NCBI GenBank assembly: GCA_004375895.1
Contig: SOJW01000069.1
Span: 2,114-66,113, forward strand
Reading direction: 5' to 3'
Origin: Candidatus Stahliibacteriota bacterium
Lineage (GTDB): Bacteria > Hydrothermota > Tepidihabitantia > B3-TA06
DNA: 64,000 nucleotides
Positions 9,713-50,771 of this stretch are shown here, piece after piece; the stretch's first letter is position 1, and each line of letters begins with the position of its first letter. Made by a program: the position numbers and the translations under genes. The notes beneath the pieces are model-generated. The model was given only the letters and a program-made list of their open reading frames with translations, made no database searches and was not told the origin of the DNA.

Positions 9713-12700
9713 CTAAATACGCTCCTCTACACAAACGTCCAAATCGCCTGCGGCGTAAGCGTTCATGTAGGCGATGATTAAATCCCTGGTGCGGTAGCGA
9801 CCGTACCGCTTTTCGTCTTCCCGTTTGACGATTGGGAAGGTTTCAAGTATCTCGCGGGCCTCACCGGTGTCCAACCCATACAGGATGAAGTACAGCGCAT
9901 CGAGCTGACAGCGCAGGTGGAAGCGGCGTTCCTCGTCCCACTTAAAGGGCGGCCTGGCCTTGCTCTTTTTATCCACATATCCCATGTCCCGTGCGAACCC
10001 GGCAAGGTCGTGGGCGGTGTAGCAAAGCTCAAGCACCTTGGGAGAGATGATGTCAATCAGCTTCTTACCGTGAAACTCTTCCTCGTACTTTTCAGGAGGT
10101 AGCACGGGCAACTGCTTGACGATAAAGAAGTTGAGATGAGTACCCATCATCTTATTTCTTGTAGCGTAATCAAAAGCGAAAGAACATAGGTTAGAAAGCA
10201 AGGGAGAAATTTCTTTGGCTGAGCGTTCTGTGAATATAAGCGGTAATTGGTTTCCAACTGCTGACCGAGGGAATATGGTCGCAACAAAGGTTCTTTCATT
10301 TGTTGCATTAGTAATATCTCGAAATCCAAGGAACCAATTTCTTCCTGTTTTGGCAAACTTCTTTAGCTCTAAATCGGATACCCAAAATCTCGGAGTGGGA
10401 GAGTATTCAGGTTTAAATTTCTCGGCTGACTCAACTTGATCAGATACTTGTCTGCCGATGGTTTTGGTTTCCTCTTGTTCCAGTTCTGCAAACCTGTGGT
10501 CAAAATGCCAAATCATCTTGCCTTCGTACAACGGAAGGTACTCCACGTCAGCTTTCTTGTATATGTTTCCCTCAACAAGGTAGAATTTGTCCTTCTCAAG
10601 CTCTGAAGCGGTGCGGAAAAGGTGTGAGTCGTTGGTCATGTCGAACATCCGCAGGAAAGAGATCCCCCAGGGGTTCTTTTCCTTCTTGCCGCTTTTGTCT
10701 ATAAGAATGGGCGCGTGCTCGTAAATCTTGCGTGTAAGCTCGTGGTCGCGCCTGCGCCGGAAGATCGGACAGGTGCGGGTGTTGGGATTGAAGAGCGCAA
10801 AGTCCTGGGGCTTAAGCTCAATCAACCTCTCGTCACTACCCGCAACAAGCTTCTCAAACTCTTCTTTATGGAGGAAGAACGCGGCGCTAATCTCATCTAA
10901 CTTGACCCCTGCGCCGCCGAAAAGAATCATGCTGAACTTGAAGCTACTATGACTATCTTCAAAAAACTTCTTCTTGTTTTCGAAATCAAGGAGAACTGCC
11001 AGTCTGTGATTATCTACAAGCTGTTGGAAGAAGTAACGAGTGGTGTTATCGGTAGCTATGCCGCTTGGGGTAAGGAATCCTACTCTTCCAATTTGCTTTA
11101 TGAGCTTTTCCGCCCGTTCCGTAAATACAGCATAGAAGTTGGTGTCCCCCCGCCCCATCAGTGGGTAGAATTCACTTCTATGAAGGTATTGAAGCACGCG
11201 GTCAGCATCATCTTTTGCCTCCAGGTATTCTTGCCACAATTCCGGGTTTTCTTCCTCCAACATCTTTATCATCTCTTTACGGTCAGCAGCCCTCGTTGCG
11301 AGCGCTATCTTGGATGAGCGTCCGGTAAAGAACTGCACCTCTTCCAGTCGAATCCGCTCCCAGGGTGGGTTACCTATCACAGCATCGAAGCCTGGGTCTT
11401 TCAGCCTCTTGGCGTCTTCATCAAAGTACGCTTCCGGGAACTCTAACTCCCAGTGGAAGAACCGGTGCTTTTCGTAGAGCCTTTGAACTTTCTTGAACCA
11501 ATCCTTTGCCCTCAACTTCTCAAACTCCTTATCCCGCTTCTCCTTGTCCTTTATTTGAAGATTAACGTGTGCCGACTCGTAATCCTCCCGGTCTATGTCA
11601 ATAAACCAATCGGCCATCCAAATGTCGGCAACTTCCCTGAATGGCCTGATGAGGTCTCGCGCTTCCTTGAGTAGATTTTCCTTGTGTTTAACATCATGTG
11701 CGGTACGTGAAGGAGTTCTCTCAATAAGAGTGTAGAGGCCTATAGCGTCTTTGATGAAGGGCATCAGGGGAGCTGAGAACAGTGCGGCTGTTGTGCCCGT
11801 TGGCGTCTTCTTCTCATGGCGCAATTTCTGAAGTGAATCGATGGTCGTTCCCAGGAGCGAGTCGCCCCAGCGCAGATGATGGTCAAGGAAGGAAAGAGCA
11901 TGGTCTTTTGCCACGGTCTCAATCCACAGCGAGACCTTTGCAAGCTCCACCGCAAGTTCGTTCTTGTCCACGCCAAAGATACAGTTCTCGACGATGCGGC
12001 GCTTGGCTATGCGATAGTCGTTGTCCTCTTCTTCCACTTCCTCTCCCGTAGAGAATTCGGTAAGCCGCTTGGCAAGATACTTGGTTGCGCTGACCAGGAA
12101 GTGCCCCGAACCCATGGCCGGGTCGAGCACACGCAGGGAAAGAATCTTTCGGGGAAGAAGCTCGTCCAGTTGCTTTTGAATCTTGAGAACCTCGCCTTCC
12201 ATGCCTTTTTGAGATCTACGCTTTTCAAGCAGTTTTTCCAGTTTCTCGCATTCCGGTTCAATCTCCTTCGCGCACCGTTCGATAATAGAGTCCAGGGTGT
12301 GTTCTACAATATAGTCTACAAGAATACTCGGTGTATAGTAAGAGCCGGAGGTTTTGCGTTCTCCTCGGTCGGTAACGGGATAGTACTCACCCTTCTTTAC
12401 CTGCTCCTTCAACCTCACCTTCTTTAGACCACGTGCCTCATTTACTGGTAGCCACCGTTCTTTACCATCCACAACAGCAGGTACAATATCATCCTCGGCA
12501 ACTTCCAGACGGTTCTCCAGAAGCCCCTCATAGATGCCGCCTAGCTTGTCGATGTCCAGGTAACCGTAGTCGATGAAGTGAAGAACCAGAAGGTTTTTCT
12601 TCTTGGGAGCACGGGAAAGCAGGTCAATGACCTCAGCCAGGTAGCGGTCTGTAATAGTCCAGTCTTCTTTAAAGTAACCGGGGTCGAAAAGCCTACCGTT

Positions 12701-29755: not shown

Positions 29756-30208
29756 ATGATAACCTCAGAGAACGAACGGTCATTCCAAATCAAACTTATC
29801 GGTTGGTTTAATAAGATACTTAGCCCTGCCAAGCATGTAGCTAACGAGGCGGATGGTGAGATAGGCGTCAGGGTGGGTGAGCGGACTAAATTCCCTGATG
29901 TGATTCTATGGTCGAATAAAGCCCAGGAGATAGCCGTAGCCACGATAGAGCTTAAGGATACCAACACCCCCGTAGACGACCCTGAGTTTCTCAATAACGG
30001 CATATCTAAAGCGAAGTCACTCCAGGCAGAATACTTCGTAACCTGGAATGTCCGTCAAACAATTCTCTGGGACATCTCTGGTGAAAAGCCTCAGCCTTTA
30101 CAAGTTTACCTTCCTCTTCGAACGGTTCGCAGAAAAGTAAGCAATGCAGAGAACTTGCTTGTTATTAAGGAATCGCAAGAATATCAGCGTAACTGGTATT
30201 TTTATTAA
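29756..30208 (+). pseudogene. Truncated restriction endonuclease domain (N-terminus of a type I/IIG-like R-M protein)
   Basis: FPDVILW...IELK...KA...YFVTWN; ends after 150 aa. Confidence 0.65.
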
Positions 30209-30326: not shown

Positions 30327-33300
30327 CTAACGGAGTAGAACCACCTTTTCGGTGCGGATTATCGTCTCATTATCCCCTTCGTGCACGGCCCGGACGAAGT
30401 AAACTCCTGAGGCCCAGTTCTTGCAGTCGATAGGCGTTTCTATTTCCACGCCTTGCGCATTCGCCTCGACTTTAAATCTGGCGAGGCGCCGACCGGTTAC
30501 GTCGTACGCAACAAGCTCGCACTCATCCGTGGTGAAGACGCTGAACTGGCTCCCCTTCAGGATGTGGCGTGAGATGGCCATTGTGAACCTGGGAGAAGAT
30601 TCAGACTCTGTGATTCCGGGTGGTAGCGATTCCATGTTCCCGCCGAAACCGTCTGGCCTGCGGTAGAAAATTGCCCACTTTGGGCCAGTGAACGGGCCGT
30701 ACACGTGCCCGTGCTGGTACAAACATGCTGGCCCCTGGTCTGTGTGGGTTACGTGGCAGAAGTAGCTTTGTTCGTCGCCGTAGGCGCTGTCAACCCTGAA
30801 TATGTCCAAATCGGGCAACTTGACACCGAAGATATGCCTGTTATTCCCCGTTCCATTTGTCCATGTTATCATACTATCCGCGATCTGGGGGTAACGGTTC
30901 TCGCCAGAGGCCTGACCACTCACCGCTATAACGATACCCCACGCGTTATAGGCAGAGCTGCGAGGCTTGGCGTTTACGTAAACCGAATCGTTCGCGTTGA
31001 AGACAACGCGGATTGAGTCCCCTTCAATGTCTATAAACGGAACAAGAGGCTCATCAGACACAGCGCTGATACTATTGGGAAAGCGATAGGCAGGCTGCCA
31101 GCCATACATGTTTTTCTCTCGATAGTAGCAAGCGGCGGTGCCGTCCTTCACGGCCCCATAGGCTATGGATACCTTTCCGTATTGCGGGTCCAACTCGATA
31201 GACGCTCCGATGGTGTCATGGGAAGTGCCCTGGTCCAGATCGCCGTCAACCAACTCTTCGGTAAGGTCGTCAGGATCGTCCTTCGGGAAATACGCGTAAT
31301 AGAGCTTGTCCTGGTTCTCTGAGAGGCCGCGGGTTATGTAAGCGAGGTGAACCATAGGTTCGAAAAAGGAATCAGGAATCGGCGGCATTCCGCCTCCGCC
31401 GCCGGTCGCGACACCAGGCAGACCTTTAGGTATAGGTATCTCGTAGCCGCCCTCGCCGTTGTAAGAAAACGCAAAATCAATGGCCACCGGGCCGGGGTCT
31501 CCGGTAAGATCAAGAATGGCAGCAGAATCAAGCGCGTAATACCAATCAGAACTGTTGCCGTGGTAATTGTATACCACTACGGAATCATCGAACCACACTG
31601 CAGCCGCTCTGTCATTATCGTCAAGGGCAATCGCAGGCCACTTACCGTGACCGAGCAGGTCGGCGGTGTACCACACCTTTGAAGGGTCGTAGCTCTGAGT
31701 ATAGTAAACGTAGCCCTTGGATGGGTAGATGAAGTGGAAGGTGTCGGTGGTGTCGCAGAGGAACTTGCGCTGGGTGGTTCTATCCATCGCCATCTCATGG
31801 TTCGTCCATATCCGGCTACGCCGGATGCAAAGAAACATATCGCCATCCGGCGAAAGGATGTCGTAGCGTATGCCCTCTATGCTTATGTGCGTGGCTATGT
31901 TCTGCCGGTAGCCCGTTTCCGTGACCTCGCCCCATCCGCTTCCTGAAGGATAGGTGCAGTTGAACTTTCCCCACAAGCTGTCATCAAGTGTATTGTAAGC
32001 ATCCGAGCATGGATTGGTAAGTGAATGAAAATTCCACTTGTAGCTGGACTTCCAGAAATCGTTGGCGTGGCTGGTTGAAGCATTGACTACGGTATCGTTC
32101 CAGCCGAACCAACCATCGCCTGGGCACCAACGGTCTATGCGATCCCAGCCAGCTTCGGTTCCCCACGGTGAGAGTGAATCGGCATCGCCGTTGAGATTCA
32201 GAAGTCCTTCAGCACACTCCAGGTCAACCTTTCGCGCCAACTCCGAGGTCACACCAAAACCACTCCTTACGTGCCATATCATCACGCCCTTTGCGTTAGT
32301 GTCCGACTGAAAAGGTTCCCTGTTGATTTCGGCAGGGAAGCTAAGCCCGTAGTCATCTTCCCAGTGGATTTTCTGCTGGTGGTTGGTGATAAGAAAATAT
32401 TCACTATCGCTTACGGGAACTTTATAGACCATAGGGTCAACACCAGGGTTGCCTATGTTGAAATCAACGAGGCGGACGTTCTGGGAGTTCGTATCTATCT
32501 CAATGGGTGTTATCCACCCCAAAGAAATACGCTCCCAAGGCGAGTACAAATGCGCGTGCCTGGTGTAGTAGCCCAACTGCATCACTGAATACTTGCCCTG
32601 ACCTGCCGAATAGGCATAGGGATTGACTTTTCCCTGGCTATCCTTACCAGCCTCGTAATAGTCGTGAAGCTCCAGATCGTGCCCCAACTCGTGCGCCATC
32701 AAATGCATTGCACTTCCATAAAGGAGCTGCTTATCAGGGTTACCAGCAAAGGTATAATGGCTGTTTGTGGAACCGAGATGTACACAACGACAGACACTAA
32801 CATCGTCGTTCGTGGAGATTGTATAGTCCGGTCCCGAAATGCCGTAATTGGCTTCGTTTGGATAGGGCGGCGATCCCAAAGGAACGTGGGGATGGATATA
32901 GAATACAAAGTCAACGTAGCCGTCTCCGCCGTGTGGCCATATGTCGTAATCGGAAAAATCCACGTAGGGATCAACTGCACTGATAACGTCCTGCACAAGC
33001 ATTTTTAACCCGTCTGTAACCTGATAATGGGAGAGGCTCTCAGGAGCGATTATGTAGCGATGATTCATGCCTGGGTTGACCGCTCCGGTAACCTCAAGCT
33101 GTTCCCACGAACCTTTGTAAAGGAAATTTGTGATAGACCACTTATAGTTGGAGTCGGTAAGCGCCGCGTTAATGCTAGGCGCGATCAACGAATCGTAGAA
33201 CGTGGGATAGATTGTATCGAGGTCTGCGAAGGAATCCTGACAGATACTGTCATCGGGGAACGCAATAACAAACACCAGCGCTTTGAATGTGCCTGTCTTA

Positions 33301-33434
33301 GGCACTCCGACCGGGTATGAGAGTGTGGAGTCGTAATCCTCCGGTTCGTTCCACCAGTAAAAACCCTGGTTGGTTGCTTGAAGCGTTGCCGCACATGCAA
33401 GCAGCGCAGCGAGCGCAAAGGTTTTGCCTTGCAT
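30327..33434 (-). CDS. Secreted M6-family (immune inhibitor A-like) metalloprotease with T9SS-type C-terminal domain
   Basis: Signal peptide; VDFSDYD..GDGYVD, HELGHDLELHDYY, YSVM, EYFLITN, GVMIWHV; SGVYFVR tail. Confidence 0.88.
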   Translation of the reverse strand: MQGKTFALAALLACAATLQATNQGFYWWNEPEDYDSTLSYPVGVPKTGTFKALVFVIAFPDDSICQDSFADLDTIYPTFYDSLIAPSINAALTDSNYKWSITNFLYKGSWEQLEVTGAVNPGMNHRYIIAPESLSHYQVTDGLKMLVQDVISAVDPYVDFSDYDIWPHGGDGYVDFVFYIHPHVPLGSPPYPNEANYGISGPDYTISTNDDVSVCRCVHLGSTNSHYTFAGNPDKQLLYGSAMHLMAHELGHDLELHDYYEAGKDSQGKVNPYAYSAGQGKYSVMQLGYYTRHAHLYSPWERISLGWITPIEIDTNSQNVRLVDFNIGNPGVDPMVYKVPVSDSEYFLITNHQQKIHWEDDYGLSFPAEINREPFQSDTNAKGVMIWHVRSGFGVTSELARKVDLECAEGLLNLNGDADSLSPWGTEAGWDRIDRWCPGDGWFGWNDTVVNASTSHANDFWKSSYKWNFHSLTNPCSDAYNTLDDSLWGKFNCTYPSGSGWGEVTETGYRQNIATHISIEGIRYDILSPDGDMFLCIRRSRIWTNHEMAMDRTTQRKFLCDTTDTFHFIYPSKGYVYYTQSYDPSKVWYTADLLGHGKWPAIALDDNDRAAAVWFDDSVVVYNYHGNSSDWYYALDSAAILDLTGDPGPVAIDFAFSYNGEGGYEIPIPKGLPGVATGGGGGMPPIPDSFFEPMVHLAYITRGLSENQDKLYYAYFPKDDPDDLTEELVDGDLDQGTSHDTIGASIELDPQYGKVSIAYGAVKDGTAACYYREKNMYGWQPAYRFPNSISAVSDEPLVPFIDIEGDSIRVVFNANDSVYVNAKPRSSAYNAWGIVIAVSGQASGENRYPQIADSMITWTNGTGNNRHIFGVKLPDLDIFRVDSAYGDEQSYFCHVTHTDQGPACLYQHGHVYGPFTGPKWAIFYRRPDGFGGNMESLPPGITESESSPRFTMAISRHILKGSQFSVFTTDECELVAYDVTGRRLARFKVEANAQGVEIETPIDCKNWASGVYFVRAVHEGDNETIIRTEKVVLLR

Positions 33435-33541
33435 AATTCCCTCCTTATTAAGGGTTGTTTTTGAAGCTGCGGAATAATACGTCATTTTGGGATGTTTGTC
33501 AAGTCCTTGACAAATGAATGGAAACGGTCATAATTGAAACT

Positions 33542-34879
33542 ATGAAGCGTTGGGTTATTCTCTTCCTGCTGGCGGGGGTTTTCCATTCAGCCTACGCTTG
33601 GAGAAAAACTTACTCGTTAGGATTTGATGGAACCATGTACTCGGTCAGGGAGACTTCGGATGGCAGTTACGTTGTAGCGGGCACGGTTACCGCTGATACA
33701 GTTCCGGGTAATTACGAGCTTCTATTGTTAAAGGCGGATTCAGTTGGAGATACGATCTGGACAAGAAAATACGGCGGAGCAGGCAACGATGAGGGGCGAT
33801 GCATTAGGCAGGTGTCTGATAGCGGATACATAATCGTTGGGTCAGTTGATGGGGTGGAGTACAGTCCGGGCAAGTTGTGGTTATTGAAGACGGATGCGAA
33901 AGGGGACACGGTCTGGACTAAGAGGTATGGATACATGTTTGGTGAGGACGAAGGTTATTGGGTTGAGGAGACTTCGGACGGGGGATATATAATAACGGGC
34001 ACCTGCAACCCTACAGGAGGGATGAACAACAGACTTTGGTTACTTAAGACGGATGCCGAAGGTGATACGGTTTGGACCCACAAGTATACTATATGTTCCC
34101 ACGGTTTTTGCGTACGGGGAACAAAAGATAGTGGTTACATACTAGCTTCTCCACTGGGCTTAATTAAAACAGATTCTATGGGTGACACCTTATGGACATA
34201 CCGATTTGTGGCGCAGGAATCTTCTGTTTGTTTGGCTTCAGATGGCGGTTATGTTTTTACAGCCACGACATGGGGCAGTTTTGGCAGGCGTGACATCTTT
34301 TTTATAAAGACTGATACGGACGGCGATTCAATTTGGGGCCATAGTTGGGGGGGAGTAGATGAGGATTACAGTTATGAAGTACAGCAGACCAATGATGGCG
34401 GCTACATAATAGTTGGTGATACACGTTCTTTTGGGGAAGCGAGGGTTAATGTTTGGCTCTTAAAGACAGATGTCAATGGTGATACCACATGGACACGCAT
34501 CTTAGGCGCGGGTTATGGCCGGAGCGTTCAACAAACTACGGATGGAGGTTATATAATCTGCGGGGGCTTGACATTAATCAAGACCGACTCGTTGGGCTAC
34601 GCCGGGGTTGGGGAGCAACCTTCACCCGTAACACACCAGCCGGACTGGCAGGTTATCTCTCCCATCGGGCAGGAAGTGGTGTTGAGGTATCACGACAAAC
34701 CTGGGGGTTTTCACGCAAAAATCTACGATATATCGGGCAAAAAGTGTGACGAGTGCCACTCAAACCTGACGAGCGGAACACTGGAATGGGGCGAGGGGAT
34801 GTCGCGAGGAGTCTACTTCATCCAAGAGATTAAGAGAGGTAGCGGGGAGAAGGTCTCGCGAGTGATTCTTCTGCATTAG
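33542..34879 (+). CDS. Secreted beta-propeller-type repeat protein with T9SS-like tail
   Basis: Signal peptide; repeated LLKTDxxGDTxWT and DGGYII; start set 7 nt after TTGACA-N16-CATAAT. Confidence 0.88.
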   Translation: MKRWVILFLLAGVFHSAYAWRKTYSLGFDGTMYSVRETSDGSYVVAGTVTADTVPGNYELLLLKADSVGDTIWTRKYGGAGNDEGRCIRQVSDSGYIIVGSVDGVEYSPGKLWLLKTDAKGDTVWTKRYGYMFGEDEGYWVEETSDGGYIITGTCNPTGGMNNRLWLLKTDAEGDTVWTHKYTICSHGFCVRGTKDSGYILASPLGLIKTDSMGDTLWTYRFVAQESSVCLASDGGYVFTATTWGSFGRRDIFFIKTDTDGDSIWGHSWGGVDEDYSYEVQQTNDGGYIIVGDTRSFGEARVNVWLLKTDVNGDTTWTRILGAGYGRSVQQTTDGGYIICGGLTLIKTDSLGYAGVGEQPSPVTHQPDWQVISPIGQEVVLRYHDKPGGFHAKIYDISGKKCDECHSNLTSGTLEWGEGMSRGVYFIQEIKRGSGEKVSRVILLH

Positions 34880-35289: not shown

Positions 35290-35424
35290 GCGGCTAACGA
35301 AACTGCGCGTCTAGGGCGGCAGCCCCGCCTCGCGCCTGCAGGTCGGTGCCTCATTCCAGCGCAGCACTGCGGTTTTCGGGTCTCAGCTCAGAGGGTTGAC
35401 AAGGCAATACTGAGTGCGTATAGT
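35290..35424 (+). promoter_or_regulatory. Conserved GC-rich element plus TTGACA-N17-TATAGT promoter, copy 2
   Basis: Homologous to 29595-29727. Confidence 0.7.
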
Positions 35425-35464: not shown

Positions 35465-37579
35465 ATGTCGCGAATGAACTTAAAATCTCTTGACTTAAAA
35501 AAGGCTTACTCCTCGGACTTTGACAACTCATTACGTGATTTTTATATACCCGCACTAGAAGCATCGATTGAGTACAACCGGCTTGCAGGATTTTTCTCAT
35601 CCACAAGTTTAGCGATCGCTGCAAGAGGAGTTCTAGGTTTAATTAGGAATGGTGGCACGATGAGACTGATAGCTTCTCCCCAATTGAGCAAAAGGGATCT
35701 TGAGATTATCTTGGATTCTGAAGAGAGAAGAGAAGAATACATAAGTAAAAGAATGCTGGAAGATCTGGCGAGATTAGAAGATGAATTTGTCAAAGATCAC
35801 GTTTTTGCTCTTGGCTGGATGGTTGCCAACAGAAAGCTTGAGATTCGGATCGCTGTGCCATACGATGAGGAGGGAAAACTTTTAAGCTATGAAGAGGTTC
35901 AACAGCGAGGGGTTTTTCATCAAAAAGTGGGTATCCTGAAAGACTCTGAGGGGAATCTGATAACCTTCAGTGGGTCCGTTAATGAGACTGCCAAGGCTTG
36001 GCTAGACAACATTGAAGAGTTTAAGGTTTTTCGGGATTGGGAACCTTCAGAGGAAGATTATGTGGGAGCTGATGTTTCAAAGTTCAACAAGTTTTGGAAT
36101 GATCAATCTCCAAGGGTCAGAATCATGGATGTTCCTAAGGCAGTCGAAAGGAAGCTAATAGAAATCGCTCCAGCGAATGTTGACAAAATCGACTTAGAGA
36201 GATGGTGCAAAACGCAAAAGAGGAAGCCACAGCTTTTTCAACACCAACAAGCTGCTATCGAAGCTTGGTTAAAGAACGGGATGAGGGGACTTTTCGAAAT
36301 GGCAACCGGCACGGGGAAAACCTTCGCAGCTTTAGGTTGCTTGGATAAAGCATCTAAAACAACCCAGAAGCTCATAGTGGTTATAGCTTGCCCCTATCAC
36401 CATTTAATTGAGCAATGGATAAAGGAAATCGAAAAATTCGGTGTTGAAACTGATAAATTAATCGTTGCGGATGCTACCAATCAATATTGGAGGAACGAGT
36501 TGGCCGATTCGCTGATGGATATTTCATTGGGACATAAAACAAAAGTTATGGCGATGACGACGCACCGCACATTCTCCTCACCGGCTTTCAGAAAGATAAT
36601 CCAAAGTAATAAACAGGATTCCACTGCTCTCTTAATCGCCGACGAGGTTCACGGTATAGGGGCTGAGAAAAGCCAAGAGGGACTCATTGATGAATATGAT
36701 CTAAGATTAGGTTTGAGTGCCACGCCTAGAAGATGGTTCGATAGTCCAGGTACAGAGTTGATATATGATTATTTCGGGGGAGTTGTTTATGAATTTGGAT
36801 TGAAGAAAGCCATCAACACTCTAAACCCGGATACAGATCAAGCCTACCTTACTCCTTATCGATATAGATCAAGATTTGTCTCTTTGACTGAGGAAGAGTT
36901 AGAGGAATACCATGAAAAGACGAGACGAATTGTAATGAATCTCAATAAAACCGAAACTGAAGAACAAGCAAAGGCAATTCTGGATATTTTAATGTTTCAA
37001 AGAGCAAATATTGTCAAGAATGCTCTGGGAAAGTATCAGGTTCTTGAGGAAATCCTCGATGAGTTAAGGGAATCTATAAGATGGACATTAATCTATTGCA
37101 GCCCCGAACAGATCGATGAAGTAATGGAGATAGTCAATCGCCGTGGCATTGCCGCACATCGTTTTACAATGGAGGAAGGAACTTCTCCCGAAAAGAAATA
37201 TGGATGGATCTCAGAGAGAGAGCATCTTCTGGAGGAATTTGCGGAAGGCAAGTACAAGATTCTGGTTGCTATGAAATGTTTGGATGAAGGTGTGGATGTT
37301 CCACCCGCAAGGATCGCTATCTTGATGGCAAGTAGTGGGAACCCTAGGGAGTACATCCAACGTATCGGAAGAGTCATAAGAAGATACCCTGGCAAAAGTG
37401 AAGCTCTCATATACGATGTTGTCACTTCTCCTTCTTTAAGTAACCTTCCATCGGAATTAAAGGAGATGGAGAAAAAGATCTTCGAGAAGGAATTAAAAAG
37501 GTATGAGGAGATAGCGAAGATCGCTCTCAACAGAGCTGAGGCATTAACCCTTATATGTGACATAAAGGAAAAACTGTAG
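35465..37579 (+). CDS. PLD-nuclease/SF2 DExH helicase fusion (PbeA-like)
   Basis: FHQKVGI...FSGSVN, MATGTGKT, DEVH, GLSATP, LDEGVDVP, QRIGRVIR. Confidence 0.9.
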   Translation: MSRMNLKSLDLKKAYSSDFDNSLRDFYIPALEASIEYNRLAGFFSSTSLAIAARGVLGLIRNGGTMRLIASPQLSKRDLEIILDSEERREEYISKRMLEDLARLEDEFVKDHVFALGWMVANRKLEIRIAVPYDEEGKLLSYEEVQQRGVFHQKVGILKDSEGNLITFSGSVNETAKAWLDNIEEFKVFRDWEPSEEDYVGADVSKFNKFWNDQSPRVRIMDVPKAVERKLIEIAPANVDKIDLERWCKTQKRKPQLFQHQQAAIEAWLKNGMRGLFEMATGTGKTFAALGCLDKASKTTQKLIVVIACPYHHLIEQWIKEIEKFGVETDKLIVADATNQYWRNELADSLMDISLGHKTKVMAMTTHRTFSSPAFRKIIQSNKQDSTALLIADEVHGIGAEKSQEGLIDEYDLRLGLSATPRRWFDSPGTELIYDYFGGVVYEFGLKKAINTLNPDTDQAYLTPYRYRSRFVSLTEEELEEYHEKTRRIVMNLNKTETEEQAKAILDILMFQRANIVKNALGKYQVLEEILDELRESIRWTLIYCSPEQIDEVMEIVNRRGIAAHRFTMEEGTSPEKKYGWISEREHLLEEFAEGKYKILVAMKCLDEGVDVPPARIAILMASSGNPREYIQRIGRVIRRYPGKSEALIYDVVTSPSLSNLPSELKEMEKKIFEKELKRYEEIAKIALNRAEALTLICDIKEKL

Positions 37580-37590
37580 GGAGATGTAAA

Positions 37591-37797
37591 ATGAGTAACG
37601 GCAAGATTAAAGTGCTCAATCCACGGATTATAGAAATCATAAAACAGAACTGTGGAAAGGATAAAGTAATAAGCAAATTCTTGATAGATTTACTCTACGA
37701 AGAATTCGAACACTCAGGACAGTGGTGGTGGGCAGAGACTTACAAGGATAGGATAAAAACATATTCGGCAAGATGGAGTAGTCCCAATGAGGATTGA
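37591..37797 (+). CDS. Small protein (PbeB-like position)
   Basis: SD GGAG; 68 aa; overlaps the next gene. Confidence 0.75.
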   Translation: MSNGKIKVLNPRIIEIIKQNCGKDKVISKFLIDLLYEEFEHSGQWWWAETYKDRIKTYSARWSSPNED

Positions 37798-39760
37798 GAG
37801 GATACTACTCAAAAATTATCGTCAATTCAAAGATATGGAGATTCCGTTCACCAAGAAAACCGACAATGATCTACACATAATTATAGGGAAAAATGGGGCA
37901 GGGAAAACAAACATCTTGAATGCCATCAATTGGTGTTTGTATAATAAAGAGCCTCACTTGTCGAAAAGCTCGAAGCGATTGCCCCTTTTGAACCTTATGA
38001 CAATACAAGAAACTAGCCAAGTAGGCAGCCACAAAGTTATCGTAGAGGTATGGACAAGAACTGAAAGTGGCAGCCGCATTAAGTTCAAAAGACTCGCTCG
38101 TTATCGGGTACACGAAGAGGGCGGCGAACCTATGCTTCAGGATACGAACTTTGAGGTGGAAATCAGCGGTGGGAAAGAGGGTACAGATTTCCAGAAAAAT
38201 GAAAAAGCCAAGCCTTATGTTGAGCGCTTTGTACCTGAAGGAATCAGAGAGTTCTACTTTTTCGATGGAGACAGACTTGATGTATACTTTAAGGAGGTTA
38301 CTGAACAGAGAATACAGCACGAAATCTTCAAAATATCCCAGATCGACTTGCTAGATATAGTTTCAAGGGGAATAGAAAAAACCCTAAAGGATATCAGAAA
38401 TGAAGCCGGGAAAATGAATCCGGTCATAGACAAGAAACGAGAAGAGTTGGAGGAAAAGGAAGACAGGCTTGCGGAAGCGGAGCAAAAAATAGAAACCTGT
38501 GAGAAAGAGATTTCTAGAGCAAATGTTAAAGTCAAAGAATTAGGAGAGAAACTTGAAGAATTACCTGACGTAGAGGTGCTACAAAACAGAAGAGAAGAAC
38601 TTAAAAAACGTAAAGAAAAAAAGAAGAATTTAAGAGCTACGAAGCTACAGGAAAAGAAAGATCTCTTGCTAGAGTATAGCAAGATTATAAGGCTGTGGCC
38701 AGCAATAAAAACCACTTTAGAAGTTATTGACGAAGAAAGAAAAAAGAAAACAATCCCGCCGCGTATAGCTAAAGAGGTTCTGGAGGAAATACTCCAGAAC
38801 AATACTTGCACTATTTGTGGGAACACTTTAGATGCGGCAGCCAAAAATCATGTAAGGGACTTGCTTAAGAAAATTAAAGTCAGATCTGATGTGGCTTACG
38901 AACTTACAAAAATGGAAACCCCTTTACGCGAATCCAAGGACGAATTGAAAGGTTTCGAGGAGAAATTAATTAAGGTGACACATGAACTTGTAGGGTACGA
39001 AGAAGACCTTGATGCGATAGAGAGAGAAATCAACAAGATAGATAAGCAGATGAGTGGCTTCGACGATGTTTCAAAAATAAAAATAAGAGGATGGAGCGAA
39101 GACCTTAGGAAATTTGAAGCTTTAGAAAACGAAGAACGGGAGAAGCTAGGTAGTTTGAAAGCTGAGAAGAAGAGACTCCTCTCTGAAGTCAATCAACTAA
39201 AAGGAGATCTTGATACAGAACTGCGTAAGGAAACCAAAGCTGTAAAGTTAAAGAAGCAAATAGATTTCTGTGCAAGGGCTTTAGAAATAGCGAATAAGAC
39301 GAAAACCATGGTAATGACAGGAACAAGAGACAGAGTAGAGGAAGCGACAAAGAAGTTGTTCTTTAGACTATTATGGAAAAAAGAGACCTACGGGGATGTC
39401 AAGATACACGAGAATTATGAGCTAGAGGTAATCCATTCAATGGGCTACTCATGTTTAGGGTCATTGGGTGCAGGAGAAAGACAATTACTGGCTATTTCCT
39501 TTACCTTAGCATTGCATCAAGTTTCCGGTTTCGATTCGGCAATTCTAATAGATACCCCCGTAGCGAGGCTCTCTGATGAACATCGAGAGAACTTCGGTAA
39601 GATCTTTTCTGAAGTTAGCACTGACAAGCAGACGATATTGCTATTTACCCCTGACGAGTACTCAGAGGACATAAGCAAGCACCTAGATGTAAAGGCTAGC
39701 ACAAGATATCTCCTTAAATTATCTGAAGACGAGAAAGAAACCCAACTGGTGGTGCTGTAA
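37787..39760 (+). CDS. SMC/Rad50-like ABC ATPase (DndD/PbeC-like)
   Basis: GKNGAGKT, FFDGD, coiled coil with CTICG hook, LGAGE, ILIDTPVARLS. Confidence 0.9.
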   Translation: MRIERILLKNYRQFKDMEIPFTKKTDNDLHIIIGKNGAGKTNILNAINWCLYNKEPHLSKSSKRLPLLNLMTIQETSQVGSHKVIVEVWTRTESGSRIKFKRLARYRVHEEGGEPMLQDTNFEVEISGGKEGTDFQKNEKAKPYVERFVPEGIREFYFFDGDRLDVYFKEVTEQRIQHEIFKISQIDLLDIVSRGIEKTLKDIRNEAGKMNPVIDKKREELEEKEDRLAEAEQKIETCEKEISRANVKVKELGEKLEELPDVEVLQNRREELKKRKEKKKNLRATKLQEKKDLLLEYSKIIRLWPAIKTTLEVIDEERKKKTIPPRIAKEVLEEILQNNTCTICGNTLDAAAKNHVRDLLKKIKVRSDVAYELTKMETPLRESKDELKGFEEKLIKVTHELVGYEEDLDAIEREINKIDKQMSGFDDVSKIKIRGWSEDLRKFEALENEEREKLGSLKAEKKRLLSEVNQLKGDLDTELRKETKAVKLKKQIDFCARALEIANKTKTMVMTGTRDRVEEATKKLFFRLLWKKETYGDVKIHENYELEVIHSMGYSCLGSLGAGERQLLAISFTLALHQVSGFDSAILIDTPVARLSDEHRENFGKIFSEVSTDKQTILLFTPDEYSEDISKHLDVKASTRYLLKLSEDEKETQLVVL

Positions 39761-40200
39761 TGGCAAAAGGTCCTGATAGGCTCTATTACGTTATAGCTGA
39801 GGATGACAAAGCTCTGTACGAGAGATTAAATGAAGAGTTTCAAAAAAGAATGAGCAATAAGAATCAGTTTCTCTTAGCTATGGCTGTGGGATTCAAAGAA
39901 GGGAATTTTCGTTCTTTTGGGAAAAAGGTGAGTTTTGTTCGAACTGAGTATCTAAATGATGAAGACAAAGCTTTAATCAATTCCGTTGCGATAAAAGAAA
40001 CGGGAGGTGTAGAGGTGCTCTCGAAAACGGAAGAAGTGTTCAGAATAGCTGAAGGTTATGCTCACGGAGGAATCAGATTACTGAATACTCAGATCACTTC
40101 CAAACAGTTTGGTTCTTTCTTTAAGCAATTTGAGAAGGAGGTGGTTGAAATCTATAGGGGATTGGATTTAGATGATGAAAAAGAGAATCCTTCTAGTTGA
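39760..40200 (+). CDS. DndE/PbeD-like small protein
   Basis: FLLAMAVG...IAEGYAHGGIRLL pattern; TAATG coupling to the ATPase. Confidence 0.7.
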   Translation: MAKGPDRLYYVIAEDDKALYERLNEEFQKRMSNKNQFLLAMAVGFKEGNFRSFGKKVSFVRTEYLNDEDKALINSVAIKETGGVEVLSKTEEVFRIAEGYAHGGIRLLNTQITSKQFGSFFKQFEKEVVEIYRGLDLDDEKENPSS

Positions 40201-41428
40201 ACCTGATTTTCCGATCCCCGCTAAAAGCAAGAACCACAAGAACTTTCTCCCCATAGGGCTGTTGAAGATAGCGTCGTATTTGAGAGACAATAGGATCCAA
40301 GTACAACTTGTGAGGGGTGTACCTAAAGATTTGCAGAAGGCGTCTGAAATAAGAGAGTTTAAACCTAAAGAAATTTGGGTAACTTCGTTATTTACATATT
40401 GGGCAAGCTTCGTAAAGGAGTCTGTTCACTACTATAAAAAAATGTTCCCGCGAGCCAAGATTGTTGTTGGCGGAATCTATGCTTCTTTGTTTTCAAGGGA
40501 TGAGGTAAAAGAGTATACTGGATGTAACGAGGTGCACCAAGGAATAATCCCGGGGGCAGAAAAATACCCTCCGGCGTATGATCTTTTAGAAAACGCAAAT
40601 CCTCATCCAATTGATTACCAAATAATCCATGCCTCAAGGGGCTGCGAGAGGCATTGTACCTTCTGTGGGACATGGAAGATAGAACCGGAATTCATTCCTA
40701 AGGAGAGCATAAAGGACGAAATACACTTGGTGAAGCTGGTTTTTTACGACAACAACTTCCTGATGAATCCGTACATTGAGAACATATTGGGAGAGCTTAT
40801 GGATCTGAAACAAAAAAAAGAAATACTGTGGTGTGAGAGCCAATCTGGATTCGATGGAAGGATACTCCTTGAAAACCCTCACTTGGCAACGATGCTTAAG
40901 AAAGCAGGTTTTAGGTATCCTCGTATCGCGTGGGACGGAAGATACGACGAACACCCTCAAATAAAAAGTCAACTAGATGCGCTAAGAGAGGCGGGTTATC
41001 GTTCTAAGGACATCTATGTATTTATGCTTTATAATTGGCATGCACCCTTTGAGGAAATGGAAAAGAAACGATTGAAATGCTGGGATTGGAAAGTGCAAAT
41101 CGCGGATTGTAGGTTCAGACCTCTATCCCAATTATATGATAACTATAATCCGCGGGCAAAAGAAGGACAGCCGTCTAGCGATTATTATATTCACGAGGGA
41201 TGGACTGATGCGTTTGTAAGACAATTTCGAAGGAATGTGCGGGAACAAAACATTTGCGTTAGGCAAGAATTAGACTTTTATTCTTCTAGTTGTGAGCATA
41301 AAAAGTTGGATAGGGGAAGTGCAAGAGTAGTAAAAACTTTGAAAGGCAGACGGAGTAAAGAACGATTCCTGAAGGCTAGAGGTATAAGAGACTACTGGTT
41401 CCCAGGTGAAGTCAGATACCCCTTATGA
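40172..41428 (+). CDS. Cobalamin-binding-domain radical SAM enzyme
   Basis: PIGLLKIASYL and VGGIYASL (B12-like domain); SRGCERHCTFC (CxxxCxxC); YDNNFL. Confidence 0.9.
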   Translation: MMKKRILLVEPDFPIPAKSKNHKNFLPIGLLKIASYLRDNRIQVQLVRGVPKDLQKASEIREFKPKEIWVTSLFTYWASFVKESVHYYKKMFPRAKIVVGGIYASLFSRDEVKEYTGCNEVHQGIIPGAEKYPPAYDLLENANPHPIDYQIIHASRGCERHCTFCGTWKIEPEFIPKESIKDEIHLVKLVFYDNNFLMNPYIENILGELMDLKQKKEILWCESQSGFDGRILLENPHLATMLKKAGFRYPRIAWDGRYDEHPQIKSQLDALREAGYRSKDIYVFMLYNWHAPFEEMEKKRLKCWDWKVQIADCRFRPLSQLYDNYNPRAKEGQPSSDYYIHEGWTDAFVRQFRRNVREQNICVRQELDFYSSSCEHKKLDRGSARVVKTLKGRRSKERFLKARGIRDYWFPGEVRYPL

Positions 41429-41453: not shown

Positions 41454-41510
41454 CCCTTGCCCTAATCGTGCCCTAATTTTGCCCTAAAGCCTTGCACCAA
41501 AATTGCACCA
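41454..41510 (+). repeat. Element-end repeat, copy B
   Basis: 55/57 identical to 50504-50560. Confidence 0.85.
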
Positions 41511-41567: not shown

Positions 41568-41680
41568 AAGACTCTGAAGAACATGGAGACAGTTCTTTAA
41601 GTCCCCTAATCCCGTCAGTTCTGGCTTATGTTGAGCTTTCTCAATTGCTTATCAGGATAGGGAATAGCGGTTTTGCAGAC
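41568..41680 (+). repeat. att-like end: GA(A)GAC arm repeats plus GGTTTTGCAGA core
   Basis: Diverged direct copy at 50316-50435. Confidence 0.65.
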
Positions 41681-41708
41681 CGCCGCCTTACCACTTGGCT
41701 ATGCCGCC
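41660..41708 (-). tRNA. tRNA-Cys(GCA), 5' 49 nt only (T-arm and 3' acceptor strand missing)
   Basis: GGCGGCATAGCCAAGTGGTAAGGCGGCGGTCTGCAAAACCGCTATTCCC; TTGACA-N16-TATAGT promoter upstream. Confidence 0.85.
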
Positions 41709-41886: not shown

Positions 41887-43263
41887 CTAGGCCTTGAACT
41901 TGTCCGAAAGGGGATACACCCTTTGTTTGGCGTGATCCCTCTGGAACAGATTCAGCTGGAAGAAGTAGGCCGACATGAATAAGGTACGGGCTATCTGGGT
42001 GGCGAAGCCTTCCTCCCCGGAGTAGCTGGTGATGAACCGCCACCAGCGCTTCAGGATGTTTTTCCAGGAGTAGTACACCCGGTTCACCCGTTCAAAGGCT
42101 TTAAACACGTCGTCCGACCCCACCCCTTTGGGCATGTGCACCAGATGGTCGCCTTCGTAATGGGAAAGATCCTTGTCGAAGATGCGCCCCTCCGCATTCA
42201 CCTTGCGGTGGAAGGGTGTACCTTTTATGGGTATGGAGATGGAGAGCAGTATGGCGCTGGGATCGATCTCCTCCAGATGCTCTGGCAGGCTCTCGTAGTA
42301 CTCCGGGGTATCCTCGTCAAGCCCCAGCATCACCCCGGTGAAGGTCATGATCCTGCGTCTCTTGAGCTTTTCGAACAGCTCCTTGTACTCCTCCACCCGG
42401 TTCTGTTTCTTGTGAACGGACAGGAGGCTGGGCTCGTTAAGGGACTCCAGGCCCAAAAAAGCTAGCCCGGCACGCGCCTTGACCAAAAGGTTCACAAACT
42501 CGTCGTCGTGCAGACAGTCGAAGCTGAACTGGAACCCCACCCCCCACATCCTGAGTTTGGCGATCTCCCTCACAACTTCCTTGGCGTATTCTATATCACC
42601 GCCGAAGTTGTTGTCGTGAAGCATCGCCACCTTGCGTTTGAGGAAGGGGAGCTTGGATGTAGCCGTAAGGTCGCGGATCACGTCCCTCACCGGCCGCTTG
42701 CGGAACGGGGCGTTCTGGATGGTGAGCTGGCAGAAGCTGCACTTGTAGGGACACCCCCGGGTGGCCTCGGTCACCACGGGCACGGAAAAGTCCGGCTCAA
42801 TAAGGTCGTATCGCGGTGGCGGGATATTATCAAGGGGTGCCCCGAAGGGAGCTTCGTAAACCTTCTTCGACTTCCCTGCGACCAGATCCCTGACCACCTG
42901 GGGCCAGATACGTTCGGCCTCGCCCACCACTGTTACGTTCATGTAGGGGATTACTTCCCGGGGGAAGGTGGAAGGGTATCTGCCACCCGCCACCACGATC
43001 TTGCCCTTCTCTCTGAACCTTTTGGCAACCTCGATGGCATGCGGGGCGCAGAAATCCATGAAGCTTAAGGCGATGATGTCCGCGTCGGTATCGTAATCAA
43101 TAGGCCTTACCATCTCGTGACGCAAACTCACCTCCACCGCAGGAGGGGTGAGGCCTGCCACCAACGCACCTGACAACGGCGGTGCCGGGGATCGGGCATA
43201 GTAAGCCTGCTTTTCGCCCAGATTCTGGAAAAGCACAATTATTTCAACTTTGGGTTTAGCCAT
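41887..43263 (-). CDS. B12-binding-domain radical SAM protein
   Basis: VVAGGRYPS, GEAE, TRGCPYKCSFC, DNNF, GLESL. Confidence 0.92.
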   Translation of the reverse strand: MAKPKVEIIVLFQNLGEKQAYYARSPAPPLSGALVAGLTPPAVEVSLRHEMVRPIDYDTDADIIALSFMDFCAPHAIEVAKRFREKGKIVVAGGRYPSTFPREVIPYMNVTVVGEAERIWPQVVRDLVAGKSKKVYEAPFGAPLDNIPPPRYDLIEPDFSVPVVTEATRGCPYKCSFCQLTIQNAPFRKRPVRDVIRDLTATSKLPFLKRKVAMLHDNNFGGDIEYAKEVVREIAKLRMWGVGFQFSFDCLHDDEFVNLLVKARAGLAFLGLESLNEPSLLSVHKKQNRVEEYKELFEKLKRRRIMTFTGVMLGLDEDTPEYYESLPEHLEEIDPSAILLSISIPIKGTPFHRKVNAEGRIFDKDLSHYEGDHLVHMPKGVGSDDVFKAFERVNRVYYSWKNILKRWWRFITSYSGEEGFATQIARTLFMSAYFFQLNLFQRDHAKQRVYPLSDKFKA

Positions 43264-50503: not shown

Positions 50504-50584
50504 CCCTTGCCCTAATCATGCCCTAATTTTGCCCTAAAGCCTTGCACCAGAATTGCACCACTTTTGCACCAATTCCTTGATTTT
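50504..50584 (+). repeat. Element-end repeat, copy C
   Basis: TGCCCTAA x3 and TGCACCA x3 at 11-nt period. Confidence 0.85.
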
Positions 50585-50728: not shown

Positions 50729-50771
50729 TTTCTAATCCGACGGTCGTGGGTTCGAGTCCCTCCAGGCGCGC
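50729..50771 (+). tRNA. tRNA-Arg(TCT) 3' fragment (att remnant)
   Basis: TTTCTAA TCCGA CGGTC GTGGG TTCGAGT CCCTC CAGGCGC G; no D-arm or 5' acceptor strand. Confidence 0.75.

Follow-up and report, generated by a model that had tools for sequence, protein, structure and literature searches.

A Pbe-type defence cassette that ends in a B12-domain radical SAM gene: a candidate DNA-marking module shared by restriction-like operons

Background

How does a Pbe-type restriction cassette without phosphorothioation genes distinguish the DNA of its own cell from that of an invader? The question is raised by five genes at positions 35465-41428 of the window, i.e. the whole 64,000-nucleotide (nt) stretch of contig SOJW01000069.1 (Candidatus Stahliibacteriota bacterium) that was analysed here. 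Four of them resemble pbeABCD, and the fifth, terminal gene encodes a radical S-adenosylmethionine (SAM) enzyme with a B12-binding domain (protein P0001). All five open reading frames (ORFs) lie on the + strand and run in the same direction.

Pbe proteins are defined as readers of phosphorothioate DNA, yet most PbeA/PbeC pairs were found without dnd genes: the available sections of Xiong 2019 (PMC6459918) give 320 of 553 PbeAC without dndCD and 165 of 553 that have no modification gene in their vicinity, and they raise the pairing of Pbe with other modifications as an open possibility. According to the available part of PMC10853773, PbeABCD and the CxC ABC ATPase-DndE system are one and the same, and such systems occur independently of Dnd, some of them together with C5 or N4 cytosine methylases or MTaX1. 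We suggest, with modest confidence and from comparative sequence data, that the radical SAM enzyme of the cassette described here modifies DNA as a portable self-marking module, in place of phosphorothioation or methylation.

Results and discussion

A Pbe cassette closed by a radical SAM gene

The cassette starts with pbeA (35465-37579), encoding a protein of 704 amino acids (aa) with an HKD nuclease domain of the phospholipase D (PLD) kind and a superfamily 2 (SF2) helicase. After a gap of 11 nt follows pbeB (37591-37797), whose 68-aa product has a Trp-rich C-terminal half. This gene overlaps by 11 nt with pbeC (37787-39760; 657 aa), encoding an ABC ATPase of the CxC type that belongs to the DndD clade and has a coiled coil and a CTIC hook, and pbeC in turn overlaps by 1 nt with the DndE-like pbeD (39760-40200; 146 aa). 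The start of the radical SAM gene (40172-41428; 418 aa) lies 29 nt inside pbeD. An earlier first-pass annotation, made by a model from the letters and a list of the ORFs, had described five coupled genes here; its ORF coordinates were exact, and the junctions indeed overlap or nearly abut.

The same annotation took the first four genes as pbeABCD-like, which was borne out for pbeA, pbeB and pbeC and is probable for pbeD. The first product matched the PADLOC model PbeA (PDLC02707, E 1.5e-235), contained the Pfam domains ResIII, DEAD and Helicase_C and carried the motifs HQKVGILKD at 152, GTGKT at 282 and DEVH at 393; H-x-K-[VI]-G was present in every variant listed among 35 full-length PbeA relatives. 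Its PLD domain (Pfam PLDc_2) scored 18.2 bits, under the cut-off of 27, and its match to TIGR04095 scored 422.9 bits, under the cut-off of 600. With the PADLOC match, the helicase domains and the H-x-K motif at 152, the identity as a PLD-SF2 helicase holds. The third product matched PADLOC PbeC (PDLC02712, E 3.5e-180), with a Walker A motif at 34 and CTIC at 341, and scored 134 bits against DndD (TIGR03185), under the cut-off of 245.85. All apex variants listed among 47 full-length PbeC relatives were CxC or CxxC, and a zinc hook is predicted from these sequences. The earlier label of an SMC/DndD-like ATPase with a zinc hook was right as to the DndD clade and CTIC, while its 'SMC-like' part is better put as CxC-type ABC ATPase (available part of PMC10853773).

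PbeB gave no family match in Pfam, PADLOC or PHROGs. Relatives were found by tblastn at the matching position in many loci (32-53% identity), and PbeB is the small, fast-evolving protein between A and C that characterises Pbe systems. For PbeD the only match found was TIGR04062 (dnd_assoc_4), at 27.7 bits against a cut-off of 74.25. DndE chains (4lrv, 7x4e, 5wtu) made up nine of the first 11 listed Foldseek rows for its AlphaFold2 (AF2) model (pLDDT 81.5), with weak values (prob 0.77-0.97, TMt 0.53-0.66, TMq 0.41-0.50, E ~0.2-0.4), and a profile search of PDB with a profile of 20 relatives did not find DndE. By homology, PbeA is predicted to contribute an HKD nuclease together with an SF2 translocase, PbeC and PbeD to form the ATPase-DndE core, and PbeB to be the small variable protein.

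The four genes stand in the same order as in the haloarchaeal DndCDEA-PbeABCD system (available sections of PMC6459918), the PADLOC PbeA and PbeC models being matched. Unlike that system, the window cassette lacks the dnd sulfur genes, the genome gave no DndC match, and the radical SAM gene is translationally coupled to pbeD. With the CxC ABC ATPase-DndE systems it has in common the core of HKD-SF2 protein, small protein, CxC ABC ATPase and a probable cognate DndE, whereas a radical SAM gene takes the position in which the variants covered by the available part of PMC10853773 have methylases. None of the five cassette proteins matched DndA, DndC or methylase families in Pfam, PADLOC or NCBIfam, in agreement with the first-pass annotation, which had noted the lack of DndA/IscS, DndC and a methyltransferase in the cassette. 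The Pbe/CxC core is known and recognised by PADLOC; for the radical SAM partner, PADLOC 2.0 has no model.

A radical SAM partner is not mentioned in the available sections of Xiong 2019 (PMC6459918), supplements aside; in the main text of PMC10853773, as far as available, 'radical SAM' occurs twice, both times about DndC; and the available parts of PMC9723712 and PMC7641849 mention other B12-dependent radical SAM enzymes only. In the literature searched, Krishnan 2020 and paper supplements aside, we found no description of such an enzyme linked to Pbe, DISARM or restriction.

The fifth protein has the architecture of a class B radical SAM enzyme

P0001 passed the Pfam cut-off for the B12-binding domain (PF02310; 35.6 bits, cut-off 32.1) and contains the CxxxCxxC motif CERHCTFC at residues 158-165. 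C158, C162 and C165 were invariant in 20/20 aligned relatives, as were C118, C313 and C362 (mean column identity 65%), and the motif was present in 87/87 relatives of at least 350 aa. The nearest solved folds to the AF2 model (pLDDT 87.6, pTM 0.85) were CysS (9n1b, E 9.1e-9), TokK (7kdy, TMq up to 0.59) and OxsB (5ul2, E 1.2e-6, TMq 0.48), and the Foldseek matches included corrinoid-binding domains. P0001 fits the architecture of the cobalamin-dependent (class B) radical SAM enzymes, as predicted from sequence and model: an N-terminal B12-type Rossmann domain is followed by a CxxxCxxC barrel. The B12-binding match, the motif, the class B fold match and the 29-nt overlap with pbeD confirmed the earlier description of a B12-domain radical SAM enzyme overlapping the fourth gene.

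CysS, TokK and OxsB have the same order of domains and differ in sequence (11-15% identity), in length (624-731 aa as against 418 aa) and in context, which is antibiotic biosynthesis for them and defence for P0001. A profile search of PDB with P0001 gave no meaningful match, and no direct sequence kinship to the solved radical SAM enzymes was found. No NCBIfam cut-off was passed either, the best being BchE with 31.6 bits against 481. P0001 matched no PADLOC family at E <= 0.01, and viperin was absent among the listed Foldseek matches. Pfam recognised no SPASM, peptide-recognition or DNA-binding domain.

CysS and TokK methylate unactivated carbons, whereas OxsB rearranges a deoxynucleotide, acting on deoxyadenosine phosphates on the way to oxetanocin A. 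That OxsB is among the best solved folds, and that the 418-aa protein has no recognised DNA-binding domain, would suit a different role, in which the enzyme, like viperin or OxsB, is an effector making an antiviral small molecule (for instance a chain-terminating nucleotide or one with an altered ring) and the gene is a defence gene riding at operon ends. We consider this role unlikely in view of the genomic data below.

The link to pbe genes is conserved

Seven loci from genome contigs and the best 80 of 221 metagenome-contig hits made up a set of 87 related loci, which was searched with the window proteins; L004 and L042 are one and the same contig, and some loci are near-copies. Ten loci have less than 450 nt upstream and are uninformative. 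In 61 of the 77 informative loci, pbeD and/or pbeC stood directly upstream of the radical SAM gene on the same strand, and pbeA and often pbeB were also present upstream where the contig allowed; the other 16 had no pbe genes upstream. When the 87 loci and the window (88 tree rows) were grouped at 90% radical SAM identity, 72 clusters resulted, 49 of them Pbe-only, 13 with other contexts, two mixed and eight unknown. The distance between the upstream ORF and the radical SAM gene was at most 50 nt in 58/79 loci, a count blurred by ORF pruning. Clustering of all ORFs from the 88 loci revealed no further gene of at least 100 aa that recurs with the cassette. The first-pass annotation had made its proposal depend on the linkage being kept in other genomes, and in these loci it is. 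In most loci the start overlaps the upstream gene or lies close against it, which is not what would be expected of an independent producer of an antiviral molecule.

The conserved order also bears on whether the gene is a passenger with an unrelated metabolic job, Pbe using a methylase encoded elsewhere or needing no mark. In keeping with a passenger, N6/N4 methylases are encoded elsewhere in the genome, a second, unrelated B12-domain radical SAM gene lies 460 nt downstream in a biosynthetic-looking cluster, and one source labels a homologue '2-hydroxyethylphosphonate methyltransferase'. However, synteny is kept across bacteria and archaea with overlapping starts, the GC content of the gene is as low as that of the rest of the cassette and unlike that of the neighbouring cluster, and no metabolic neighbour recurs. 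P0001 scored only 20.9 bits against the PhpK family (cut-off 600). We regard a passenger as highly improbable.

Two further observations were made in the Pbe loci and their relatives. A GmrSD_N-type protein, of a type IV, modification-dependent restriction family, is encoded directly 3' of the radical SAM gene in L070, L082 (8086-9504) and L084. On a viral contig (L090, 5273-7589), short ORFs in several frames occupy the place where pbeC is expected, before a pbeD-like gene and the radical SAM gene; pbeC may be decayed or misassembled there.

Homologues of P0001 are widespread. A word-indexed search gave 2591 proteins at E <= 0.001, the best 120 being 60-70% identical, and a full hidden Markov model search, run against representatives of clusters at 50% identity, matched 141 of them at E <= 1e-30, rising to 796 at <= 1e-10 and to 2941 at <= 0.001. 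Named sources at 60-70% identity included archaea (Odinarchaeum, Thermoplasmata, Bathyarchaeia, Methanophagales) as well as bacteria (Atribacterales, Desulfobacteraceae, Koleobacter, Tissierellaceae). In contrast, none of 40 relatives of the host, from the same genus through the same class, had the gene. Absence from the relatives of the host together with similar copies in bacteria and archaea is the pattern of a mobile gene with sporadic distribution, and the low GC content of the cassette (0.40-0.43, flanks 0.49-0.57) is in line with it. A reciprocal census of PbeA in the host phylum was uninformative, as six of 272 genomes matched, five of them weakly or partially. The cassette is best explained as a complete Pbe-type defence operon that was gained by horizontal transfer.

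The same radical SAM clade closes other restriction-like operons

The radical SAM enzymes of the non-Pbe loci were 58-67% identical to P0001 and again stood at the end of a co-directional operon. In 12 of 14 cases the junction, as subtracted from the ORF list, ranged from a 4-nt overlap to a gap of ~70 nt. Five of these loci were DISARM-like: L024, L081 and L083 encode DrmA-like (PADLOC E 1.8e-112), DrmB-like, PLD DrmC-like and DrmE-like (Pfam DrmE_C) proteins, and L077, which ends at the contig end, and L079 are similar without DrmC. In four loci (L010, L025, L057, L069) the partner was a DndB/DpdB-like domain fused to HEPN, and in another four (L004, L048, L054, L055) HerA-like ATPases with further ATPases or DUF7226. 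An SNF2 helicase with a 337-aa protein was found in L088 and L051, and a GHKL ATPase with two unknown proteins in L014. All partner modules are restriction-like (nucleases, helicases/translocases, ATPases) and seem to be without a recognisable self/non-self marker, a feature that again fits poorly with an antiviral nucleotide.

The DISARM-like loci allow the closest comparison. Class 2 DISARM consists of DrmE, DrmA, DrmB, DrmC and the C5 methylase DrmMII, the C5 methylase being terminal in the operon. The five related loci carry DrmA/DrmB/DrmC/DrmE-like genes (no DrmC in L077 and L079) and end in a gene of the present radical SAM clade, whereas no methylase was recognised in them; the window cassette itself is not DISARM. 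In L081, where likewise no methylase was recognised, the genes 3' of the radical SAM gene are DprA/ShosA-like and HAD-containing.

Contexts were mixed in a quick IQ-TREE phylogeny of 88 rows; one row of less than 350 aa was left out. Branches with SH-aLRT >= 95 force at least three DISARM-like, four DndB-HEPN, two HerA and 10 Pbe changes. The radical SAM proteins of L081 (DISARM-like) and L087 (Pbe) are 90.7% identical, and thus the gene was exchanged between unrelated restriction-like modules on short time scales. Such exchange could be understood if a mark on DNA, rather than protein contact, were the interface between the enzyme and its partners.

Free swapping would also suit a self-sufficient gene for an antiviral molecule; it is difficult to reconcile with a protein or RNA substrate. 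On the latter account, the enzyme would mature PbeB or another subunit, or act on tRNA or rRNA. Peptides or proteins are the substrates of many B12-dependent radical SAM enzymes (PoyC, Mmp10), PbeB is small, conserved and without an assigned role, and the subfamily to which P0001 belongs has the extra invariant cysteines C118, C313 and C362. Against this stand three findings: none of the DISARM-like, DndB-HEPN, HerA, SNF2 and GHKL contexts contains PbeB or any other Pbe protein, and their partner proteins differ from one context to the next; nearly identical radical SAM enzymes (90.7%) serve different contexts; and P0001 has no recognised SPASM or peptide-recognition domain. Modification of protein or RNA is improbable in our judgement.

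Relatives are fused to DNA methylases and occur in viruses

Direct links to DNA modification came from a sister subfamily, which has the signature motif FNQGLD where the window subfamily has ESQSGFD. In P0268 (777 aa), a complete C5 cytosine DNA methylase (PF00145, residues 25-345, E 5.3e-57) precedes a radical SAM relative at 406-670; in BLAST, its residues 406-668 align to P0001 at 31% identity with the signature motifs of the family. In P0274 (584 aa) the order is reversed, a radical SAM relative (29% identity) preceding the C-terminal part of PF00145. Viral scans with P0268 returned ordinary C5 methylases only, and those with P0185 no match. Other relatives have additional segments as well. 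The extra domains of the fusion proteins P0233 and P0270 had no Pfam or PDB match; the C-terminal extension of P0233 was likened to ParB_N in a protein atlas (score 0.96), which we take as a lead only. P0247 (797 aa) is a homologue interrupted by an intein, with Intein_splicing and a LAGLIDADG trace.

Viral contigs carrying the sister subfamily numbered at least 504 (a relative is encoded by 504 of the 567 pattern hits), and the PHROG family phrog_9298 matched P0001 at E 3.9e-23. In GenBank, Marinitoga camini virus 1 encodes a relative with 32% identity over 83% of the query, and in an archaeal Caudoviricetes record a relative lies four genes away from a DNA methyltransferase. Neighbourhoods were counted in the 80 best viral loci. 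C5 methylase homologues occurred in 10 of them, and 14 contained a cluster in which the representative that was tested is a helicase-N6_N4 methylase; a DUF5131 cluster (13/80), a cluster with the terminase large subunit as tested representative (11/80) and an SSB cluster (8/80) were also found. Such viral neighbourhoods are where phages keep protective DNA-modification genes. A protein of 174-484 aa accompanies the phage radical SAM gene in 17/80 loci and is adjacent to it in about eight (L114, L116, L117, L133, L135, L179, L184 and others); it had no Pfam or PDB match and no kinship to PbeD.

For a synthase of antiviral nucleotides, fusion to C5 DNA methylase domains and frequent occurrence on viral contigs beside DNA methylases would be odd, and no phosphatase or kinase partner recurs. 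These relatives also bear on whether the enzyme acts on invader DNA during restriction, either by stripping or altering phage modifications or by damaging DNA through radical hydrogen abstraction. The radical SAM gene always accompanies nuclease or helicase modules, and radical SAM enzymes that act on DNA include spore photoproduct lyase (SPL) and gp53 of phage M6 (available part of PMC8989533). On the other hand, the phage-borne sister family and the methylase fusions point to protective marking, and a non-specific DNA-damaging enzyme would need self-protection of its own. Action on invader DNA is decidedly unlikely.

As described in the available part of PMC8989533, gp53 is the first radical SAM enzyme known to install a DNA modification: it is a radical SAM isomerase in thymidine hypermodification, and the resulting modification is used against restriction. 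In this respect it resembles the role proposed for P0001. It differs in being SPL-like, with no B12 domain mentioned in that part, phage-borne and active on an amino-acid adduct of 5-hydroxymethyldeoxyuridine, and no kinship of gp53 to the family of P0001 was found.

Genes for another self-mark were not detected

A phosphorothioate mark could in principle be supplied from elsewhere in the genome. DndC (TIGR03183) was not found in the metagenome-assembled genome (MAG) that contains the window (89.9% complete, 75 contigs; DndA/IscS was not searched for), nor in 5/5 other genomes carrying pbe and the radical SAM gene, and the only DndD-like match in the own genome was PbeC. Supply of phosphorothioate from elsewhere, which the first-pass annotation had named as a threat to its proposal, was accordingly not seen in the form of DndC, and we set it aside without taking this as proof of absence. 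PF00145 was likewise found in 0/6 cassette genomes as compared with 9/14 control genomes. As no C5 methylase was found in the six genomes, the window subfamily appears to have no need for pre-made 5-methylcytosine, and a radical SAM enzyme that depends on a canonical C5 methylase is disfavoured for it. A loose scan of 612 flank ORFs for methylase motifs, crude as it was, flagged five outside the four core clusters, none of them adjoining a cassette as judged by their coordinates.

A proposed mark on host DNA

Taken together, terminal position, free swapping, methylase fusions and a phage sister family are as expected of a DNA-modifying 'M' module. The first-pass annotation had left the choice between self-marking and an antiviral nucleotide. 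The comparative evidence favours self-marking DNA modification, since the same clade ends restriction-like operons in which no methylase was seen, and relatives are fused to C5 methylase domains and occur beside phage methylase genes; the nucleotide is less favoured, and the function is still one that we infer. According to the self-marking model, the radical SAM enzyme would put a chemical mark on host DNA, and the restriction-like partner would spare marked DNA and attack the unmarked invader. The enzyme would thereby take the place of the dndCDEA phosphorothioation genes or the cytosine methylases of other Pbe systems. Possible marks are base C-methylation, radical or cobalamin-mediated, or the product of another B12-dependent radical SAM reaction (the first-pass annotation had put forward methylation of an unactivated carbon or of phosphorus), and the phage sister family would probably mark the phages' own DNA. 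A broader form of the model, which we hold more tentatively, is that the family writes a sequence-specific DNA mark of a new kind and serves as an interchangeable 'M' subunit of Pbe, DISARM-like, DndB-HEPN, HerA, SNF2 and GHKL modules, and that phages counterfeit this mark.

Several points weigh against self-marking by P0001. The case is one of guilt by association inferred from sequences, and an independent defence gene that happens to lie in defence islands would likewise be swapped often. P0001 stays below the Pfam cut-off for Radical_SAM (26.5 bits, cut-off 29.5). Cobalamin binding is not readable from its sequence, as we know of no motif that decides it, and the use of cobalamin in catalysis is only predicted. 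Both methylase fusions come from the sister subfamily, not from that of the window, and each is one representative of a cluster at 50% identity. As the loci were limited to the hits closest to the query, the proportion of Pbe contexts among them is probably too high.

The searches for another mark have limits as well. With a MAG that is 89.9% complete, and with completeness values not given for the other five genomes, DndC and C5 methylases can only be called not found. The crude motif scan missed the only methylase that Pfam detected, in L014. N6/N4 methylases are encoded on contigs C69, C18 and C51 of the own genome, and the window itself contains an N6_Mtase match (PF02384, 27.5 bits, ~11855-12136, - strand) inside a 1388-aa frame, which may be a type IIG or BREX-like methylase; there may be further defence genes in the window. 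Such N6/N4 methylases could mark DNA in trans.

Surroundings of the cassette

A promoter-like site, TTGACA-17 nt-TATAGT at 35396-35424 on the + strand, precedes pbeA by ~40 nt and agrees with the consensus at 11/12 positions. This near-consensus site is, by its match alone, a candidate for the single promoter put forward earlier; taken as a class, such sites were not enriched in the region (16 as compared with 10.7 +/- 3.6 in shuffles). On the + strand, no terminator-like site was seen 3' of the radical SAM gene.

A 57-nt repeat composed of short sub-repeats (TGCCCTAA, TTGCACCA) occupies 41454-41510 (+), starting 26 nt after the radical SAM stop codon. It has a second copy at 50504-50560 with 96% identity (0 matches in 100 shuffles), and the two copies bracket ~9 kb. 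The - strand carries the 5' part of a tRNA-Cys at 41659-41708 (Rfam tRNA 24.8 bits, gathering score 29), which matches part of the intact tRNA-Cys of contig C7 at 95% identity; ARAGORN reported no tRNA in the window. A weak match to the 3' end of tmRNA was found at 50745-50762, ~190 nt past the second repeat copy (9.6 bits, E 0.16). The repeats, the tRNA-Cys fragment and the tmRNA-like stretch look like integration scars. A search for the empty site in same-genus genomes was given up, as the right-flank gene was also missing from 5/5 of them, and for the same reason no element boundary can be drawn. Of the element-end repeat suggested earlier, the repeat and its position hold, whereas no element could be defined for it to end.

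The second, unrelated B12-domain radical SAM gene (41887-43263, - strand; 458 aa, Radical_SAM 49.1 bits) heads a GC-rich cluster that extends to ~46946 and encodes a short-chain dehydrogenase/reductase, an AMP-binding enzyme and an AIR-synthase-related protein. The cluster is absent from 5/5 same-genus genomes and looks biosynthetic, not defensive. Upstream of the cassette, a 150-aa ORF at 29756-30208 (+) corresponds to the N-terminus of a type IIG restriction-methylase (PADLOC E 1.9e-18; Pfam HSDR_N_2 below cut-off) and is probably a fragment or a stand-alone domain. The ORFs at 30327-33485 (-; 1052 aa) and 33518-34879 (+; 453 aa) had no Pfam or PADLOC family, and the 453-aa ORF has internal repeats of ~50 nt at a spacing of 120-318 nt.

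Conclusions

For part of the PbeAC pairs that have no modification gene nearby, the conserved fifth gene provides an explanation that can be tested, and it would supply a component missing from annotation of the PADLOC type. If the proposed role is true, this enzyme would be the first of the radical SAM or B12 kind to serve as the modification half of a cellular restriction-modification-type system, and a new DNA modification would likely be revealed. It would represent a third self-marking chemistry, beside SAM-dependent polar methylation and phosphorothioation, and would explain the 'solitary' Pbe systems. The occurrence with six kinds of restriction modules, together with the phage sister family, suggests a general player in the arms race between cells and phages rather than a curiosity of one genome.

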